Part shown: piece after piece, positions 2 through 15,289 of the stretch
How the letters are laid out: each line of letters begins with the position of its first letter
Numbering within the stretch: the first letter of the stretch is position 1
From: Thermoproteota archaeon
Lineage (GTDB): Archaea > Korarchaeota > JAOZGF01 > JAOZFZ01
Direction: 5' to 3'
Length of the DNA: 64,000 nt
NCBI GenBank assembly: GCA_027492035.1
Contig: JAOZFT010000020.1
Location: 75,071 to 139,070, forward strand
The notes under the pieces: model-generated
What the model was told of the DNA's origin: nothing
What the model saw: only the letters and a program-made list of their open reading frames with translations
The model's database searches: none
Made by a program: the position numbers and the translations under genes

Positions 2-1315
2 AAGAAATTATTAGAGTTTGTAATAGAGGAAACTAAAAAAATTGATTCAAAGGTTAAAGTTATAGCTGGTACAGGAGGAAGCAGTACAAAAGAAGCTTTA
101 GAAATGACTAAATTCGCCGAAAAAAGGGGGGCTGACGCTGTATTGGTTTGCTCCCCCTACTATTTCAAAGTTTCAAATAGGAACCTGTATAACCACTACT
201 ACTGCATAGCCCAAGAAACAAGTATCCCAATCATAATTTATAACATTCCTCAACTTACAGGTAACAGCATAGACTGGAGAATAATTGAAGACTTAGCTCA
301 ACTAGACAATATTGTGGGTTTAAAGGACAGCAGTGGGAACATGTCTTACTTAATGACTTGTTTAGAAAAGGCAGGTGACAAAATAAATATTGTATGTGGC
401 TGGGATGAAATAGTTTTCCCAGCCTTAGCTGCAGGCGCAAGTGGAATGATACTTGCAAGTGCAAACATTCTGCCAGATATTTGGGTTGAAATCTATAACA
501 AAATGAAACAAAGCAAGTTAGAGGAAGCTAGAAAGCTTCAATTCAAAATACAAAAAATTCTGAGGTTAATTGTTAAAAGCGGTGCAGTTGGGGTTAAATC
601 TGCTTTAAAAATGATGGGTTTAAATGTTGGAAAAAGCCGCAACCCCTTAGCACTCGGTGGAGAACTGAGTTATGAAGACAAGGAAGAATTAAGGATTGAA
701 CTGGAGAAACTTGGAAAAATTGAAAAAGAAAAAGTTGAAATGGAAATTAAGCCAGGGGCTCCATTGGAAAAAAGGTTTGGTGCAATTGGTATTACTCCGA
801 AAAAAATTAAAGATTTCAGTTTAAAAATAGGTGAAGCCTTATCAGGTTCAGAACCTGAAGTAGCTCACATAGAGGTTTTAATAGGTGAAAAAAATGGTCC
901 AGTAGGAGAAGCATTCGCTAAGGCGAAAGCAGCCCCCTCCCCTGGACATGAGCCACTGATAGCTATTCTTGAGCCTAATTTGCCGGTTAAGCCAGCAACC
1001 TTAATAATACCCACCGTTAAAATTAAGAATTTAAGGTCTGCATCTCTTATTTACGGTGCAGCCCAGGCAGCTGTTGCTAAAGCTGTAGCAGACACTGTTA
1101 AAGAAGGTTACATACCTGAAGAAGAAGCAGATAATTTACTAATTCTGGCAAGTGTTTTCATTCATCCAGCAGCCGTTAACAGGCAGAGAATATACATTAA
1201 TAACTACAAAGCAATGAGACATGCGTTGAGACGCGCTATAGAAAACAGGCCAAACATAAGCGAAATACTAAATGACAAAGAAAAAGCCAAGCATCCCCTC
1301 AAGTATGAACCCTAA
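2..1315 (+). CDS. DapA/NanA-family class I aldolase fused to C-terminal formaldehyde-activating enzyme (Fae) domain; 5'-truncated by the window edge
   Basis: Frame is open from nt 2 (KVIAGTGGSSTKEALEM). Aldolase motifs PYY, IIIYNIP, VGLKDSSG. From about nt 820 Fae motifs GEAL..EVAHIEVLIG, GPVGEAFA, GHEPL, PNLPVKP, GAAQAAVAKAV, VFIHP, NY.A. Confidence 0.9.
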   Translation, partial: KKLLEFVIEETKKIDSKVKVIAGTGGSSTKEALEMTKFAEKRGADAVLVCSPYYFKVSNRNLYNHYYCIAQETSIPIIIYNIPQLTGNSIDWRIIEDLAQLDNIVGLKDSSGNMSYLMTCLEKAGDKINIVCGWDEIVFPALAAGASGMILASANILPDIWVEIYNKMKQSKLEEARKLQFKIQKILRLIVKSGAVGVKSALKMMGLNVGKSRNPLALGGELSYEDKEELRIELEKLGKIEKEKVEMEIKPGAPLEKRFGAIGITPKKIKDFSLKIGEALSGSEPEVAHIEVLIGEKNGPVGEAFAKAKAAPSPGHEPLIAILEPNLPVKPATLIIPTVKIKNLRSASLIYGAAQAAVAKAVADTVKEGYIPEEEADNLLILASVFIHPAAVNRQRIYINNYKAMRHALRRAIENRPNISEILNDKEKAKHPLKYEP

Positions 1316-1689: not shown

Positions 1690-3228
1690 TTAACTTCTTT
1701 TGTTTTGGGCGAGGTGCTTTATTGTTTCATAAGTTTGGAATTCTGGCGCGAGTGAGTCGTAAATTTTAAATTTATCGAACGAAAGAATTTTTGCATCTAC
1801 ACCCATTGTGCCTCCGTGGATAGGGTAAACAAATGTAACTTCCTTACGTGTAAAGAAATTGTCAGCTAACGTTAAAAACATCCTTTGCTCCTCCTTACTT
1901 AAGTTTTGGCTAAATACTCCCAAGGGAGTTTTTGTTGTTGCAGCCCAATCTATAAACGCAAACACCGGAACGTTGCCTAACTTTTGTTTAACAATATCTA
2001 ATCTTTTGCTCCATTTCTCTTCATCAAGCTCCATTTTCTTTACTTCCTTAACTGAAGGGCTTAATGTGACAAAGTCAAGGTTTGGGGGAGAGTAAGGGTA
2101 CATTGCTGCACTTAACCAACTGCCAACATAAACATACTTACCTTTTAATTTTCCATAATCGTGGATTTCGTCCACAATTTTACAAGCTGCTTCGTAACTT
2201 TCCTTTACTGCAGAGTGGTTAATGTTTTTTGTGATCTTAAGAAGCAGATTTGCCTGAGCAAAAAGCATGTCAACCCATATAGCATCTGCACCTGCATCAA
2301 TTTGTTTCTCTGCCCAGCTTATGAGAAGCCTTTGAAACCTTGGGTTTGTTATGTCTGGAAAATACGCTGCAGCCTCTTCCGGGCTGTAAAGGCTGCAATC
2401 TAAATCTTTAGAAACCCATAATTGTTTTTTGCCGAATTCACATTGAAATTCCTCCTTTGATACATTAACTCCCCATTTTTGAGGGTCTAGAGCAAGATCC
2501 CATGTTTGGGGATACCCTATAATTTCTCCTGTTTCCGGGTTCCAAACAGCCCCTCTATGGATTATTTGCGCTGGAACTGCTCCGCAAATAATCACGTCAG
2601 GCATCTCCGCCTTTATTTCAGAAATTGTTTTTTCAAGTTTTTCGTAGCTGTAACCGCTGAATTCACATCTCCATCTTGCTTTCTGTGAAGAAAGTTCATT
2701 ACATTTATTTGGGCAGGGGTTCCACCTCCAAAAAGCCCTGAAAATAAAGTCCGTCCTTGTCTCTTTGAACAAGCTTATCATTTCCTCTGTGCTTCTGTCT
2801 ACAACTGCACCGTCAGTTATTCTCTCATACAGAGAAGCAACCCTAACTCTTCTTAATTTCTCCTTCGCTTTAACTTCTAATTCTTTGTAGCTTTGGTTTT
2901 GTTGAGTTTGAGGTAGTTTTTCAATTTTCAAAATCTCAACAGGTACCCACATTTGAATAGTGACTACGTCTTTCCTCACTTTTGCTTTGAAATTTATTCT
3001 TAAACCGTCTTCTCTAAATTCATCTGGTAAATTTAAGGGGTAATATTTTTCACCCTTATCTGTTACAACTCCGTAGAATCCTCCCTCTAAAGGAACATAT
3101 TTTACTGTACCAGTTAATTCAATGATTCCTTGCCCTCCCTGAAACGTGCAGCCCAGCAACAGTATCGTCAATAGAAAACCTATGGTAGCCAAAGCTCTGT
3201 TTTTTATTCCCCTCTCCTCCAAATTCAT
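1690..3228 (-). CDS. Secreted or lipoprotein-like protein: small N-terminal beta domain plus a putative glycoside-hydrolase-like barrel
   Basis: Hydrophobic N-terminus ending LLLGC; motifs LEGGFYG, FIFRAFWRW, QIDAGADAIWVD; 512 aa. Confidence 0.55.
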   Translation of the reverse strand: MNLEERGIKNRALATIGFLLTILLLGCTFQGGQGIIELTGTVKYVPLEGGFYGVVTDKGEKYYPLNLPDEFREDGLRINFKAKVRKDVVTIQMWVPVEILKIEKLPQTQQNQSYKELEVKAKEKLRRVRVASLYERITDGAVVDRSTEEMISLFKETRTDFIFRAFWRWNPCPNKCNELSSQKARWRCEFSGYSYEKLEKTISEIKAEMPDVIICGAVPAQIIHRGAVWNPETGEIIGYPQTWDLALDPQKWGVNVSKEEFQCEFGKKQLWVSKDLDCSLYSPEEAAAYFPDITNPRFQRLLISWAEKQIDAGADAIWVDMLFAQANLLLKITKNINHSAVKESYEAACKIVDEIHDYGKLKGKYVYVGSWLSAAMYPYSPPNLDFVTLSPSVKEVKKMELDEEKWSKRLDIVKQKLGNVPVFAFIDWAATTKTPLGVFSQNLSKEEQRMFLTLADNFFTRKEVTFVYPIHGGTMGVDAKILSFDKFKIYDSLAPEFQTYETIKHLAQNKRS

Positions 3229-11806: not shown

Positions 11807-13387
11807 TTAAAACAAGTCATAATCTTGCAAGTAGCTCCTACCTGTTTTTAAAGCTATTTCGGCTTTGTTAAGTTCCTTTCCAAGGTATGCAGCATGAGGA
11901 AGGAGGGTAACTAACCCTCTTTTAATTGCTTCCATATACACATCTACAGACTTTTCTCCCCTGATTATAACATCAGGTTTCTCCCTGTTCCGGAAACTGT
12001 AATGTTGCAAAACTATTTCCCTCCTTTCCCTGTCAACATTTATTTTAAAGAAACCTTTTGGGTCTATGGGTGTCTTATATTGTTTTTCAGCCTTTACAAC
12101 CTTAACTTCATTCTCTATTGCAGGGTTATACAGAAGTTCTTTACTTCTCTTTTCTTTAAAGAAAAGGAGATTTATGGCTAAGTCTTTAGGAAAGGTTCCC
12201 CTCTTTCTTGAAATATAAATCATTTTGGAAGCTTTAATTAATTCCTTCACTGCTCCTTTACATTTATTGCTTTGTTCAGTAGTTAAAACCAAGTTTATAC
12301 TTAATTCATTCATTATTGCTGCGAGGATAGCGTTTACACCTATTGAGTCAGCATCTATTGTTTCTGTTATGTTTCCAACTCCGCAAAAGAGCATTTTTTC
12401 CGGATGCTTCCTGTGAAAAGTTTTGAATGTGATTAATGAATCTGTTAAATTCGGCATGTTGACAGGGTTTAAGATTAAGTCGCAAAGGAAATTTTTCACT
12501 CCTTCCTCCCTTGCTTTTTCAATGTTTTCCTCCATAACTTCTATTTTTTCATTTATCTCCACAGGAAAAATCCCTTTTTTGTAATTATACGGTATTATTA
12601 CAGCAGGTGTTTCCCCTAAGTAACTGGCAACCTCTTCTATGTTTCCCCCTTCCAAACTCACCACTAAATCTATACCCTCCTCTACTGCAGCCTTTATTTC
12701 CTTAGAAGAAACTGTGTCAATACTTAAGGGTGCATTACAAACTTTTCTTAAAAAATTAATCAGCTCCTTTACTTTTTCAGGTTTCTCCATGCCTGAAACC
12801 ATGCCTATATCTATTATGTGGGATCCAGAGTTTAAGTAATGTTTAACTTTTCTAATTAACTCTTCCTTAGACAATAAGGGGGCGTCAACTATTTCTGCTG
12901 CCACCTTAAATGGAAGTCTTTGATCAATGACAACTTTACCCCCAATAACAAATGCTTTTTCCTTGTTCAGTAACTCTTTTTCAAGTTTCTTTATTTCATA
13001 AAGTTCAGAGGAGGCTTCTTCCTTCCTCTTTAAATGTAAAATTTCACAGGCTGGAGTTACAGTTGAAAACTTGATTTTCCCCTGTTTAAAAAGGTTAAGA
13101 ATTTCTCCTAAATCTGTTGATAATTTAGGTCCCTTAAAAACAGGTAAACCTAGTTTTTCCCCTATCTCCTTTGTGTCTCCCTTAATTAATCCTGGGACCA
13201 AAATTAAATCAAAACCACGCCCTCTTAAGTCCTCCTTCTCCAGTTGTTTAATAATGTTTTTTATGGGAATTAATGAAGCTACGTCAAAAGGCAGAGTTTT
13301 AATTTCATAATCTACCTCGCTCCTCTTTACACTTTCATGAACAGACTTCTCGGCCAGTTTACCTGTTACAAGCAACACCTTCAACAT
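11807..13387 (-). CDS. Archaeal dihydropteroate-synthase-like protein (MJ0107 family) with C-terminal DUF4346
   Basis: LLVTGKLA, AEIVDA, IDIG, SIDT, GNITE..DADSIGVN, PKDL, DPKGFF, HAAYLGKEL.KAE. Confidence 0.85.
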   Translation of the reverse strand: MLKVLLVTGKLAEKSVHESVKRSEVDYEIKTLPFDVASLIPIKNIIKQLEKEDLRGRGFDLILVPGLIKGDTKEIGEKLGLPVFKGPKLSTDLGEILNLFKQGKIKFSTVTPACEILHLKRKEEASSELYEIKKLEKELLNKEKAFVIGGKVVIDQRLPFKVAAEIVDAPLLSKEELIRKVKHYLNSGSHIIDIGMVSGMEKPEKVKELINFLRKVCNAPLSIDTVSSKEIKAAVEEGIDLVVSLEGGNIEEVASYLGETPAVIIPYNYKKGIFPVEINEKIEVMEENIEKAREEGVKNFLCDLILNPVNMPNLTDSLITFKTFHRKHPEKMLFCGVGNITETIDADSIGVNAILAAIMNELSINLVLTTEQSNKCKGAVKELIKASKMIYISRKRGTFPKDLAINLLFFKEKRSKELLYNPAIENEVKVVKAEKQYKTPIDPKGFFKINVDRERREIVLQHYSFRNREKPDVIIRGEKSVDVYMEAIKRGLVTLLPHAAYLGKELNKAEIALKTGRSYLQDYDLF

Positions 13388-13443: not shown

Positions 13444-14199
13444 TTACGTCTCCAGTATTTCATTGATTTTAGTTAGCAACCTGGTAGGTTCTTCAACAAC
13501 CACTACTCCCTTCATTTTTCTTAGTTTATTAACGTTTTCAACATCTACTTCTCTAGTTTCTATTTTTGCTTTCTCCCAACAAGCTACTGCTTGGAAGGGA
13601 CATGCTGAAACACATTTTTCGCAGCCTATACATTTCAAAAGATTTATTTTTGGGCCTTCCTTGGTTGATTCTATAGCCTCAACCGGACAGTTTGTTAAGG
13701 CCGTGCATTCCTTACAGTTTAAACATTTTTCGCGTTTGATTATGCAAGGAAGCGTAATTTCTGTTTCTCCCAGCTTTGAATCCACAGGTAAAACAATCAC
13801 TGGAACTTTGCCTTTCAAAGCTTGGGCGAAAGCATTTGTAACACATGTGTCAGCCACTCCATTAACCATTTTAGCGACGGAGTTTGCTGTAACAGGTGAA
13901 ACAGCAAAAACTTTGTATTTTCTTAGATTGAAACGGCCTGAAAAAACTCCACTAGCCCCATCTGTTTCTCTGCTTACCAATTCTTCGTAATAAAGGCCTG
14001 GGGAAATTTTCTTAATTTTATCTCTTAAACCGTACATTCTGAGAATCTCTAACCCTGCTTCACTAACGAAGGTAGTTACTTTTACACCGTACTTTTGTTT
14101 AATCCCCAACATTATTTGGTAGGTTTCGAAAAGAAAAGTTCCTGAACCTGTAACTCCCCAGGCAAGCTTCAATTCTTCCCTCAATACTTCACCCCTCAA
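13444..14199 (-). CDS. dmrX: Dihydromethanopterin reductase-like Fe-S flavoprotein (DmrX/MJ0208 family)
   Basis: AWGVTGSG, P.TANSVAK..GVADT.VTN, two ferredoxin-type Cys clusters; flanked by pterin biosynthesis genes. Confidence 0.8.
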   Translation of the reverse strand: MRGEVLREELKLAWGVTGSGTFLFETYQIMLGIKQKYGVKVTTFVSEAGLEILRMYGLRDKIKKISPGLYYEELVSRETDGASGVFSGRFNLRKYKVFAVSPVTANSVAKMVNGVADTCVTNAFAQALKGKVPVIVLPVDSKLGETEITLPCIIKREKCLNCKECTALTNCPVEAIESTKEGPKINLLKCIGCEKCVSACPFQAVACWEKAKIETREVDVENVNKLRKMKGVVVVEEPTRLLTKINEILET

Positions 14200-14350: not shown

Positions 14351-15289
14351 TTATTTTAACTCAAATTCCTTTCTCAACTGTTCTAAAGTAGCATGGTACT
14401 CAGCCACTAAGTTATGTTCATGAATGCTCTCTAAGTCTTCTTGAATAAGGGAAACTTCTGTTTCATCAGGTAAATTCGGGAATTTATCAATTACTCCCTT
14501 CGCCATGTACCTTATCACATCCTCAGCAAACCTTGCTTTCTTCACAGCTTGCTTAACAACTTCAATTTCATCTTTCTTCTTCAATAATTCAAAAGTTGGG
14601 GCACTCATTGCATTCCTTGCTATCTCGATCAGTGTGTAAGCATTAACAGAATAATTCCCTGGAACCTCAACCACTAACGTAGCGTAGCTTCGCTGCATGT
14701 GGGTTGCAATAAACAGTTTTTCAACAAGCTTCTTCACTTTTTCTTCATTCCCTATATCCCTCTTTAAAGAATCCATTGTCTCCAAGAGAATGCTTTTCTG
14801 GGCGCTGGGGCAAGCAGTTATCCCGCTTACTTTAACCCCTACAGCCTTCTTTATTTTTATTTTCTTTTTTATCCTTTCAGCTTTAGCAGATCCTAGAAGT
14901 ACAGCTCTTTCAAATGTCTCCTTCCCTGTTACAGGTGTTTCAGTAGGATAAACCACATCACCTTGTAAAATAACTTCCGCCTTTCTACAGTAAGGATGCT
15001 TCTGCAAAAGCTCCTTTGCCACTCTGCTGCAGAAAACTTCAATTTTCAATTTTTTCTTTGCATACCTTGAAAGAACCTCAACTATGGCTTCATAATTCCT
15101 TGAAGCATGGATTCCGCGGTAGTCAGGAACTAAGTCAATGAAAGCAGAGACAGAAGGGACAAAAGCTGCTGTTTTATGGTTTATGTCGATAGAAAAAACA
15201 GGCACTCTAATATTTTCAACACCAACCCTTTTAAGATAAATACGAAACAAAGGTTTCTCAACATTTACGTCTGAAATGAGGGAAGGCAA
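14351..15289 (-). CDS. mptA: GTP cyclohydrolase MptA (FolE2 family)
   Basis: RVGV, RGIHASR, GITACP, THMQR, FAED..R, ESIHEHN. Confidence 0.88.
   Translation of the reverse strand: MPSLISDVNVEKPLFRIYLKRVGVENIRVPVFSIDINHKTAAFVPSVSAFIDLVPDYRGIHASRNYEAIVEVLSRYAKKKLKIEVFCSRVAKELLQKHPYCRKAEVILQGDVVYPTETPVTGKETFERAVLLGSAKAERIKKKIKIKKAVGVKVSGITACPSAQKSILLETMDSLKRDIGNEEKVKKLVEKLFIATHMQRSYATLVVEVPGNYSVNAYTLIEIARNAMSAPTFELLKKKDEIEVVKQAVKKARFAEDVIRYMAKGVIDKFPNLPDETEVSLIQEDLESIHEHNLVAEYHATLEQLRKEFELK

Follow-up and report, generated by a model that had tools for sequence, protein, structure and literature searches.

A conserved archaeal fusion of a DHDPS-family aldolase with Fae, almost certainly misnamed as DapA, and its possible role in linking pyruvate to C1 metabolism

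The gene that opens the stretch of DNA analyzed here raises the question of what reaction is carried out by a protein in which an aldolase barrel of the dihydrodipicolinate synthase (DHDPS) family is continued, in one reading frame, by a complete Fae domain. The stretch, referred to below as the window, comprises 64,000 nucleotides of contig JAOZFT010000020.1 of a Thermoproteota archaeon (assembly GCA_027492035.1) and corresponds to G000:C21:75071-139070, where G000 denotes the window's own genome, which is 93% complete. Databases name the fusion protein as the lysine-pathway enzyme DapA, which it almost certainly is not. The reading favoured in the present work, which is held tentatively and is given somewhat less than an even chance, is that the protein would interconvert 4-hydroxy-2-oxobutanoate (HOB) with pyruvate and formaldehyde, and that this reaction would be coupled to the methylene derivative of tetrahydromethanopterin (H4MPT).

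The Bathyarchaeia are among the most abundant archaea of sediments, and their C1 metabolism has been inferred almost wholly from annotation; the systematic naming of the fusion as DapA misleadingly implies that genomes without DapB make lysine through diaminopimelate. If methylene-H4MPT is indeed linked to pyruvate, then the archaeal C1 pool would have a new exit or entry that forms a C-C bond, and the fusion would be the natural, carrier-coupled version of a reaction which synthetic biologists borrow from promiscuous enzymes. If the protein is instead a sugar-acid lyase with a recruited scaffold of the Fae fold, it would still represent an unrecognised enzyme family of unusual architecture.

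The fusion gene, its domains and its spread

The frame of the gene is already open at the 5' end of the window. The ATG start lies 175 nt upstream, the full gene occupies G000:C21:74895-76385, and its product, P0002, has 496 residues, of which residues 1-59, including the GSTGEF motif, are encoded upstream of the window (G000:C21:74895-75071). The parts of the gene that lie in the window are as follows.

2-1315, + strand: DHDPS-Fae fusion gene, a single open frame of 437 codons plus stop, open at the window's 5' end
2-724, + strand: class I (Schiff-base) aldolase domain of the DHDPS/NanA family, residues 60-300 (PF00701, TIGR00674)
239-262, + strand: YNIPQLTG loop, with the catalytic Tyr139 and with the codon of Leu144 at 254-256
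320-337, + strand: LKDSSG, with the codon of the Schiff-base Lys167 at 323-325
395-415, + strand: CGWDEIV loop of the aldehyde pocket, G-[H/Y/W]-D-E in the family as against G-D-D in DapA
725-820, + strand: inter-domain linker, residues 301-332, with low pLDDT and the least conserved stretch
821-1315, + strand: Fae domain and stop codon, residues 333-496 (PF08714, TIGR03126)
857-874, + strand: EVAHIE, with the codon of His348 at 866-868

On the part of the protein encoded in the window, Pfam detects the DHDPS domain (PF00701) at E = 1.7e-58 and the Fae domain (PF08714) at E = 1.5e-60, the latter with 204 bits against a cut-off of 27 and with coverage of profile positions 1-158 of 159, and full-length P0002 exceeds the NCBIfam cut-offs both for dapA (TIGR00674, 243.8 bits against 206.15) and for Fae (TIGR03126, 203.1 bits against 118). 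The original prediction, made from the letters of the window, had held that one continuous frame joins an aldolase barrel to a complete Fae domain, and this is borne out by the frame and by the Pfam coverage; the motifs YNIPQLTG, LKDSSG and EVAHI stand at the places which it gave for them.

An AlphaFold2 model generated from an alignment of 32 family members has a mean pLDDT of 83.2 and contains two confident domains, with the aldolase domain modelled as a TIM barrel at a pLDDT mostly above 90 and with linker residues 305-331 below 50. Foldseek matches the N-terminal domain to barrels of the DHDPS family at a target-normalised TM of 0.90-0.96, and no solved chain among the matches listed spans both domains, the query-normalised TM being at most 0.58. 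Alignment of the Fae domain runs from one end to the other of the solved Fae chain 1y5y_A, covering residues 6-165 of its 169 (E = 8.6e-33), and places His348 on the His of that chain, the residue of the EVAHI motif which is presumably the active-site His22 of the Methylobacterium enzyme. Fae is a homopentamer whose active sites lie between subunits. P0002 therefore has two domains, each with an intact catalytic centre, and a flexible linker between them.

A word-index protein search found at least 120 homologues at a coverage of 98-100%, and all of the 120 that were listed carry both PF00701 and PF08714. Identity to the query lies between 58 and 68% for 119 of these listed homologues and reaches 99% for one. 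Their source names are "4-hydroxy-tetrahydrodipicolinate synthase" or "hypothetical protein", and the organisms named for them are Bathyarchaeota or Bathyarchaeia, a "Thermoproteota archaeon" and Candidatus Atabeyarchaeum deiterrae. In species-representative genomes, a relative is encoded on 151 genome-contig stretches, and of the best 80 of these 151, 79 bear the title Bathyarchaeota or Bathyarchaeia and the remaining one Krumholzibacteriaceae; these 80, together with the window's own locus, make up the 81 loci of the neighbourhood analysis used below. In a sample of 101 Bathyarchaeia genomes, the same set being used for every gene compared in this work, the fusion (match at E <= 1e-100) is present in 30 and absent from 71. 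In a set of 41 genomes surrounding that of the window, the full fusion occurs in G000 and in G001 (68% identity), which belongs to the window's family, G020 and G023 have two tandem copies each, and G002 has a 105-residue fragment that is 70% identical to the C-terminus of the fusion. An exhaustive search of representatives at 50% identity added 13 further full-length two-domain clusters, which are 34-52% identical to the query.

Within the close family, the mean pairwise identity is 0.67 for the aldolase domain, 0.73 for the Fae domain and 0.50 for the linker, and Lys167, Tyr139, Thr48 and His348 are each conserved in 32/32 members. The Fae His, a GHEP stretch and a C-terminal motif are invariant or nearly so in the subfamily to which the window's protein belongs. 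The fusion is real, old and under selection: chance would not come near to joining two domains of more than 190 bits each in one frame across hundreds of independent assemblies. It had been proposed that archaeal genomes be searched for the same domain architecture, which the counts above show not to be unique to this assembly.

A literature search, which covered papers but not the gene tables in their supplements, found no description of a DHDPS-Fae or DapA-Fae fusion. Fae genes are discussed in one metabolic survey (PMC10321748) and Fae is mentioned in another paper (PMC9723716), in neither case with mention of a fusion in those parts of the two texts that were available. The fusion is thus a conserved family of bifunctional enzyme for which no published description was found.

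The aldolase domain and DapA

The case for DapA is that TIGR00674 scores above its cut-off, although only modestly so, that the closest solved structures are DHDPS chains (34-37% identical to the aldolase domain of the fusion), and that homologues carry the source name of DHDPS itself. The fold, the Schiff-base Lys, the GxTGE motif and the Tyr pair are common to both, and Lys167 takes the position of the Lys in E. coli DapA (IKEATG) as well as of that in NanA (LKQTSG). The fusion differs from DapA in lacking the Arg, the GDD stretch and the dapB partner, in falling into a separate clade, and in having the extra Fae domain.

The first of these differences lies in the loop YNIPQLTG, which aligns with YNVPSRT of solved DHDPS chains such that Leu144 stands in place of Arg. 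In DapA this is the Arg, taken here to be Arg138 in the E. coli numbering, which binds the carboxylate of aspartate semialdehyde. Among the 32 family members the position is occupied by C in 13, V in 12, L in 6 and A in 1. The missing Arg had been put forward as what separates the protein from true DapA, and the distinction holds, because E. coli DapA and 8/8 homologues that adjoin dapB have the Arg, which is found in 0/32 fusions. In addition, the GDD stretch of DapA is replaced by G-[H/Y/W]-D-E in the fusion family.

The second difference concerns gene content. A dapB gene scoring over the cut-off is found in 0/30 of the genomes with the fusion as against 29/71 of the others; it is absent from 3/3 closed fusion-bearing Bathyarchaeia chromosomes, and none is found in G000 at its 93% completeness. 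Where dapB is present, a DHDPS homologue adjoins it in all eight loci examined of the 29, and these homologues read Y[IV]IPGRTG and SGDDD. In a maximum-likelihood tree of aldolase domains with 43 rows chosen by the authors, 16 of them fusions, the eight dapB-adjoining homologues form a group with E. coli DapA (support 100/95), and all 16 fusions are placed beyond the main split, so that the phylogenetic placement which the original prediction had proposed sets the fusions apart from DapA.

The genome of the window has a second DHDPS-like gene, at C20:38752-39618, whose product reads YNVPKFTG, also without Arg, and scores 242.1 bits on TIGR00674, over the cut-off. In the tree this protein belongs with standalone homologues from related genomes, which make up a third clade, and its gene is followed by one for a putative subunit of a 2-oxoacid:ferredoxin oxidoreductase, assigned by sequence only. 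Since G000 has no dapB, this second "DapA" is probably misnamed as well.

The proposed reaction and its rivals

In the favoured reading, the aldolase domain would form HOB from pyruvate and formaldehyde or split it again, the Fae domain would interconvert the same formaldehyde with 5,10-methylene-H4MPT, and the net effect would be a reversible transfer of a hydroxymethyl group between methylene-H4MPT and pyruvate; run anabolically, the reaction would supply HOB for transamination to homoserine. The original prediction had offered this reaction as an example, with a link to homoserine or sugar-acid metabolism, and it is partly supported by what follows. The direction of the reaction and its physiological role may differ between lineages. 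HOB is the only aldol adduct of pyruvate from which formaldehyde is released.

One point in favour of this reading is that Fae-Hps (NF009833), which the original prediction had cited as the known Fae fusion and which is the only one named in NCBIfam, also pairs Fae with a formaldehyde aldolase. Like the present fusion, Fae-Hps places Fae and an aldolase in one polypeptide in archaea that use H4MPT, and by analogy the logic common to both may be that formaldehyde never leaves the enzyme. The two differ in that the order of the domains is reversed, Fae being C-terminal in the DHDPS-Fae fusion, and in that the partner of Fae is a barrel of the Hps/OMP-decarboxylase type in the one and a Schiff-base, pyruvate-dependent barrel of the DHDPS family in the other; the Fae-Hps model gives the fusion 187.9 bits against a cut-off of 274 and matches only positions 2-161 of 392. 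A second point is that the cofactor is available, with H4MPT-biosynthesis genes in the window and with Mch in most of the genomes that carry the fusion. A third comes from the distribution of genes across the 101 genomes, given here as the number of genomes with the gene among those that have the fusion and among the others.

Homoserine dehydrogenase (Hom): 5/30 with the fusion, 57/71 others
Archaeal Asd: 8/30 with the fusion, 54/71 others
ThrB: 9/30 with the fusion, 41/71 others
Mch: 26/30 with the fusion, 56/71 others
PanB: 15/30 with the fusion, 17/71 others

ThrB occurs without Hom in 14 genomes, 8 of which have the fusion, and together with Hom in 36, only 1 of which has it. Six genomes with the fusion (G055, G068, G092, G123, G129 and G141) have ThrB and ThrC above the cut-off and neither Asd nor Hom, and in G068 the genes follow one another on one strand in the order fusion-thrB-thrC, the last two overlapping at the end of thrB. 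A route from pyruvate and a C1 unit through HOB to homoserine would agree with these data. The genomes are kin, and Fisher-type figures therefore overstate the association.

Two papers bear on the chemistry. In PMC8879981 and PMC13279387, promiscuous pyruvate aldolases and transaminases are described as converting formaldehyde and pyruvate to homoserine in E. coli strains without the aspartate-homoserine route, and PMC13279387 adds that pyruvate-dependent aldolases of E. coli cleave 2-oxo-4-hydroxybutyrate to pyruvate and formaldehyde. In the engineered homoserine cycle of E. coli, as set out in PMC8879981, a "HOB aldolase" step makes HOB from pyruvate and formaldehyde, which is then taken to homoserine and, via homoserine kinase and threonine synthase, to threonine. 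That cycle differs from what is proposed here in that it relies on promiscuous enzymes such as RhmA, mainly a class II aldolase, on free formaldehyde and on HOB as a non-native intermediate, whereas the fusion would be a dedicated and carrier-coupled enzyme.

A stronger form of the proposal, suggested by the fusion-thrB-thrC cluster of G068, is that the fusion is a natural H4MPT-coupled pyruvate hydroxymethyltransferase which serves as the sole route to homoserine and threonine in those Bathyarchaeia that lack Asd and Hom. The C1 unit would then come from the methyl branch of the Wood-Ljungdahl pathway or from methoxy or methyl substrates, and, if the proposal is true, this enzyme, serine hydroxymethyltransferase, serine deaminase and the cleavage of threonine could between them complete a natural equivalent of the engineered homoserine cycle for C1 assimilation. 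In this strong form the proposal is improbable.

Several observations weigh against the favoured reading. Because the genomes are related, the contrasts of presence and absence could reflect lineage history alone. ThrB of the GHMP type is missing from 21/30 of the genomes with the fusion, and an alternative homoserine kinase (TIGR02535), considered as a rescue for these 21, does not serve as one: it scores over the cut-off in 16/101 genomes, among which G068 is the only one with the fusion. G041, whose genome is closed, carries the fusion, yet Hom, Asd, ThrB and Mch are all missing from it and its only ThrC-like match falls below the cut-off, so that homoserine would have no evident fate there. 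The genome of the window itself has the ordinary homoserine route, with Asd, Hom, ThrB and ThrC (thrB-thrC on C16), and G001 has Asd and Hom; G020 and G023, which are in the window's phylum and carry the tandem fusions, have Asd, lack Hom and have no ThrB over the cut-off. Conversely, four genomes without the fusion (G067, G108, G117 and G128) also have ThrB without Hom and Asd, and in these four, as in G059, no unfused close orthologue was found, only DHDPS homologues at 30-35% identity.

The gene order of G068 is likewise limited to one species-level lineage, comprising G068 and contigs that are 95-99% identical. Of four near-identical metagenome contigs, two lack thrB and one has a 47-residue remnant of it; these three are L139, L140 and L141, whose fusions are 95-96% identical to that of G068, while G068 and L138 keep thrB. 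The loss looks like a recent one within a single species-level lineage. Neither thrB nor thrC is found near the fusion in 11 contigs at 66-70% identity, and thrB is near it in none of the 80 genome loci (the best 80 of the 151). The conserved neighbours of the fusion in Bathyarchaeia, a TrmI-type methyltransferase and a 430-aa protein, are not metabolic partners.

The same side of the balance holds the heterogeneity of the wider family, for which catalytic residues were compared across 14 representatives (50% identity). Of these, 12 have the Schiff-base Lys; it is replaced by Ala in P0132 and by Leu in P0137, which therefore cannot work as class I aldolases, and the Fae His and a C-terminal RHPFRYxP motif are retained together in the same 7/14 and missing from the other 7. 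Catalysis by Fae is therefore excluded for some branches of the wider family, and there the Fae fold may also have a structural role. It also holds the aldehyde pocket, with its G-[H/Y/W]-D-E and following Ser, which is like that of NanA (GYDE) and of YagE and YjhH (GYDD). In NanA the Asp, Glu and Ser residues of the pocket hold the hydroxyls of the sugar, and formaldehyde would not need them.

This pocket is the starting point of the principal rival, in which the protein would be a lyase of the NanA or 2-keto-3-deoxy-gluconate/xylonate type, cleaving a 2-keto-3-deoxy sugar acid to pyruvate and a hydroxylated aldehyde, for example glycolaldehyde or glyceraldehyde, while the Fae domain would detoxify formaldehyde independently or scaffold the oligomer. 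When P0002 is aligned with four E. coli members of the family (DapA, NanA, YagE and YjhH), the loop read as YNVPSRTG in DapA is YNIPALSG in NanA and YNFPALTG in YagE, and the Leu at the position of the DapA Arg is found in NanA, YagE and YjhH as well. The pocket loops are NGYDEIF in NanA, CGYDDHL in YagE, CGYDD in YjhH and SGDDAS in DapA; among the 32 family members, position 193 is H in 24, Y in 6, W in 1 and S in 1, D194 is present in 31/32 and E195 in 32/32. The pocket therefore resembles that of NanA, YagE and YjhH and not that of DapA. The models for NanA have the next-best NCBIfam scores after dapA and an HpaI-type model, and in the tree E. coli NanA and the fusions stand on one side of the main split (93/96). 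No curated cut-off for a sugar-acid lyase is reached, however, with nanA (TIGR00683) at 179.6 bits against 382, PRK04147/NF003164 at 201.2 against 281 and the archaeal KD(P)G aldolase model (NF040954) at 153.1 against 390, and the branch of NanA is very long (3.09), with a placement flagged as unsure. The fusion shares with NanA and with YagE/YjhH, which are 2-keto-3-deoxy-pentonate/gluconate aldolases, the YNIPxL[TS]G-type loop and the G-aromatic-D-[E/D] pocket, at 30-32% identity, but it has an extra Fae domain and no sugar-acid gene context. The likeness to NanA is one of shared motifs and not of membership.

Two further observations on the Fae side are favourable to this rival. A second Fae of higher score (228-248 bits), in a frame of 390-610 aa, is present in 27/30 of the genomes with the fusion, so that a catalytic Fae is already at hand in them; these frames are probably Fae-Hps or other Fae fusions. 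A structural role for the Fae domain would moreover agree with the His-less Fae-like domain in 7/14 representative subfamilies, but it is hard to square with a subfamily such as the window's, in which the Fae His, GHEP and the C-terminal motif hardly vary. As for gene context, a PfkB-family sugar kinase gene lies upstream of the fusion, on the same strand, in G001, whereas no sugar-acid dehydratase or transporter is found among the conserved neighbours at the 81 loci, and no known pathway requires such a lyase together with Fae. A function as a sugar-acid lyase is accordingly regarded as rather unlikely, though it is the most serious competitor of the HOB reaction.

A substitute for PanB would hydroxymethylate 2-oxoisovalerate at the expense of methylene-H4MPT, giving ketopantoate for coenzyme A. 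PanB (PF02548) is a functional analogue only: its net reaction is also the transfer of a hydroxymethyl group from a methylene-pterin to a 2-oxo acid, and it differs in having an unrelated fold, in depending on a metal, and in its carrier (methylene-folate) and acceptor; by analogy, the fusion is proposed as the H4MPT-using, class I counterpart of PanB with its methylene-folate. The chemistry proposed for the substitute parallels that of PanB, and no PanB match is found in G000 at 93% completeness. The distribution of the two is not complementary, however, as seen in the counts above, and the co-occurrence of PanB with the fusion leads to the rejection of a replacement, which is very improbable; the fully substituted enamine that it demands would also be unusual for an aldolase of the DHDPS/NanA type. 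A true DapA fused to Fae for unrelated reasons is more improbable still, being rejected on the absence of the Arg, the absence of DapB and the separate clade, and an artefact of assembly or gene calling has practically no probability in view of the collinear full-length architecture in hundreds of independent assemblies, closed chromosomes included.

Genomic setting and the wider family

The valyl-tRNA synthetase (ValRS) of the window's genome has one relative at 64% identity, all the rest being near 50% and those with names coming from Bathyarchaeota and Verstraetearchaeota/Methanomethylicia; judged by this one protein, the organism probably belongs to a deep lineage of the TACK type outside the main Bathyarchaeia. 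The window contains three genes of the H4MPT-biosynthesis type about 10 kb from the fusion gene, which is the distance that had been noted for them from the letters of the window.

11807-13387, - strand: pterin-binding/DUF6513/DUF4346 protein (PF00809, PF14251, PF20123)
13444-14199, - strand: flavoprotein with a 4Fe-4S domain (PF02441 and Fer4)
14351-15289, - strand: GTP cyclohydrolase of the FolE2/MptA type (PF02649)
1690-3228, - strand: 512-aa protein, adjoining the fusion gene downstream, with no Pfam match at E <= 0.001

As far as gene content predicts function, the first three show that the organism makes the cofactor of Fae; no operon link is seen between them and the fusion gene. The 512-aa protein has a hydrophobic N-terminus followed by a Cys, which looks like a lipoprotein signal, and genes for LUD/CCG-domain proteins also lie downstream of the fusion on the other strand. 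Upstream, a gene for a 97-aa ferredoxin lies 370 nt before the fusion gene, and a same-strand cluster at G000:C21:66619-72485 (L204:6620-12483), which lies 2.4-8.3 kb upstream of the window, encodes a CooF-like ferredoxin, a pyridine-nucleotide-disulphide oxidoreductase, a CooC-like P-loop ATPase, a DUF763 protein and a 626-aa protein of the Prismane/CO-dehydrogenase family (636 bits). Elsewhere in the genome there is a standalone Fae at C20:49129-49602, which scores 278 bits on the Fae model against 203 for the fusion, and a standalone Hps at C1:7841-8452; the standalone Fae and the second DHDPS-like gene are 10 kb apart on C20. The setting is rich in C1 genes, and it includes no conserved operon with the fusion.

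At the 81 loci, the commonest neighbour is a gene for a TrmI-type tRNA methyltransferase downstream of the fusion (66/81). The gene of the 430-aa protein is divergent from the fusion in 59/81, with a median gap of 154 nt (for example L085:8534-9823 on the - strand); this protein has no Pfam or NCBIfam match, and a look-up in a protein atlas gave only unnamed clusters with low recognition. Neither gene is beside the window's fusion: in G000 the TrmI gene is on C26, and no match to the 430-aa protein is found. The neighbourhood thus offers no clue to the function of the fusion. In G055 and G123, two of the genomes with ThrB and ThrC but without Asd and Hom, a 377-aa gene is divergent from thrB-thrC (L121:4052-5185 and L123:4148-5281, both on the - strand), and its N-terminal sequence, the sole basis for the assignment, marks it as a putative zinc-type protein like alcohol or threonine dehydrogenases.

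The tandem fusions of G020 (L092:206-2889) and G023 (L091) have overlapping ends. In the pair of G020, the Fae-like domain of one copy is shortened and without the His, while the second copy retains the His and reads CGSGE in its aldolase pocket; the tandem copies may form a hetero-oligomeric pair. The DHDPS domain also takes part in other long fusions, namely P0143 (757 aa), P0147 (616 aa) and P0159 (600 aa), and at G108:C50:193370-194191 a domain of the DHDPS family lies within a frame of 721 aa.

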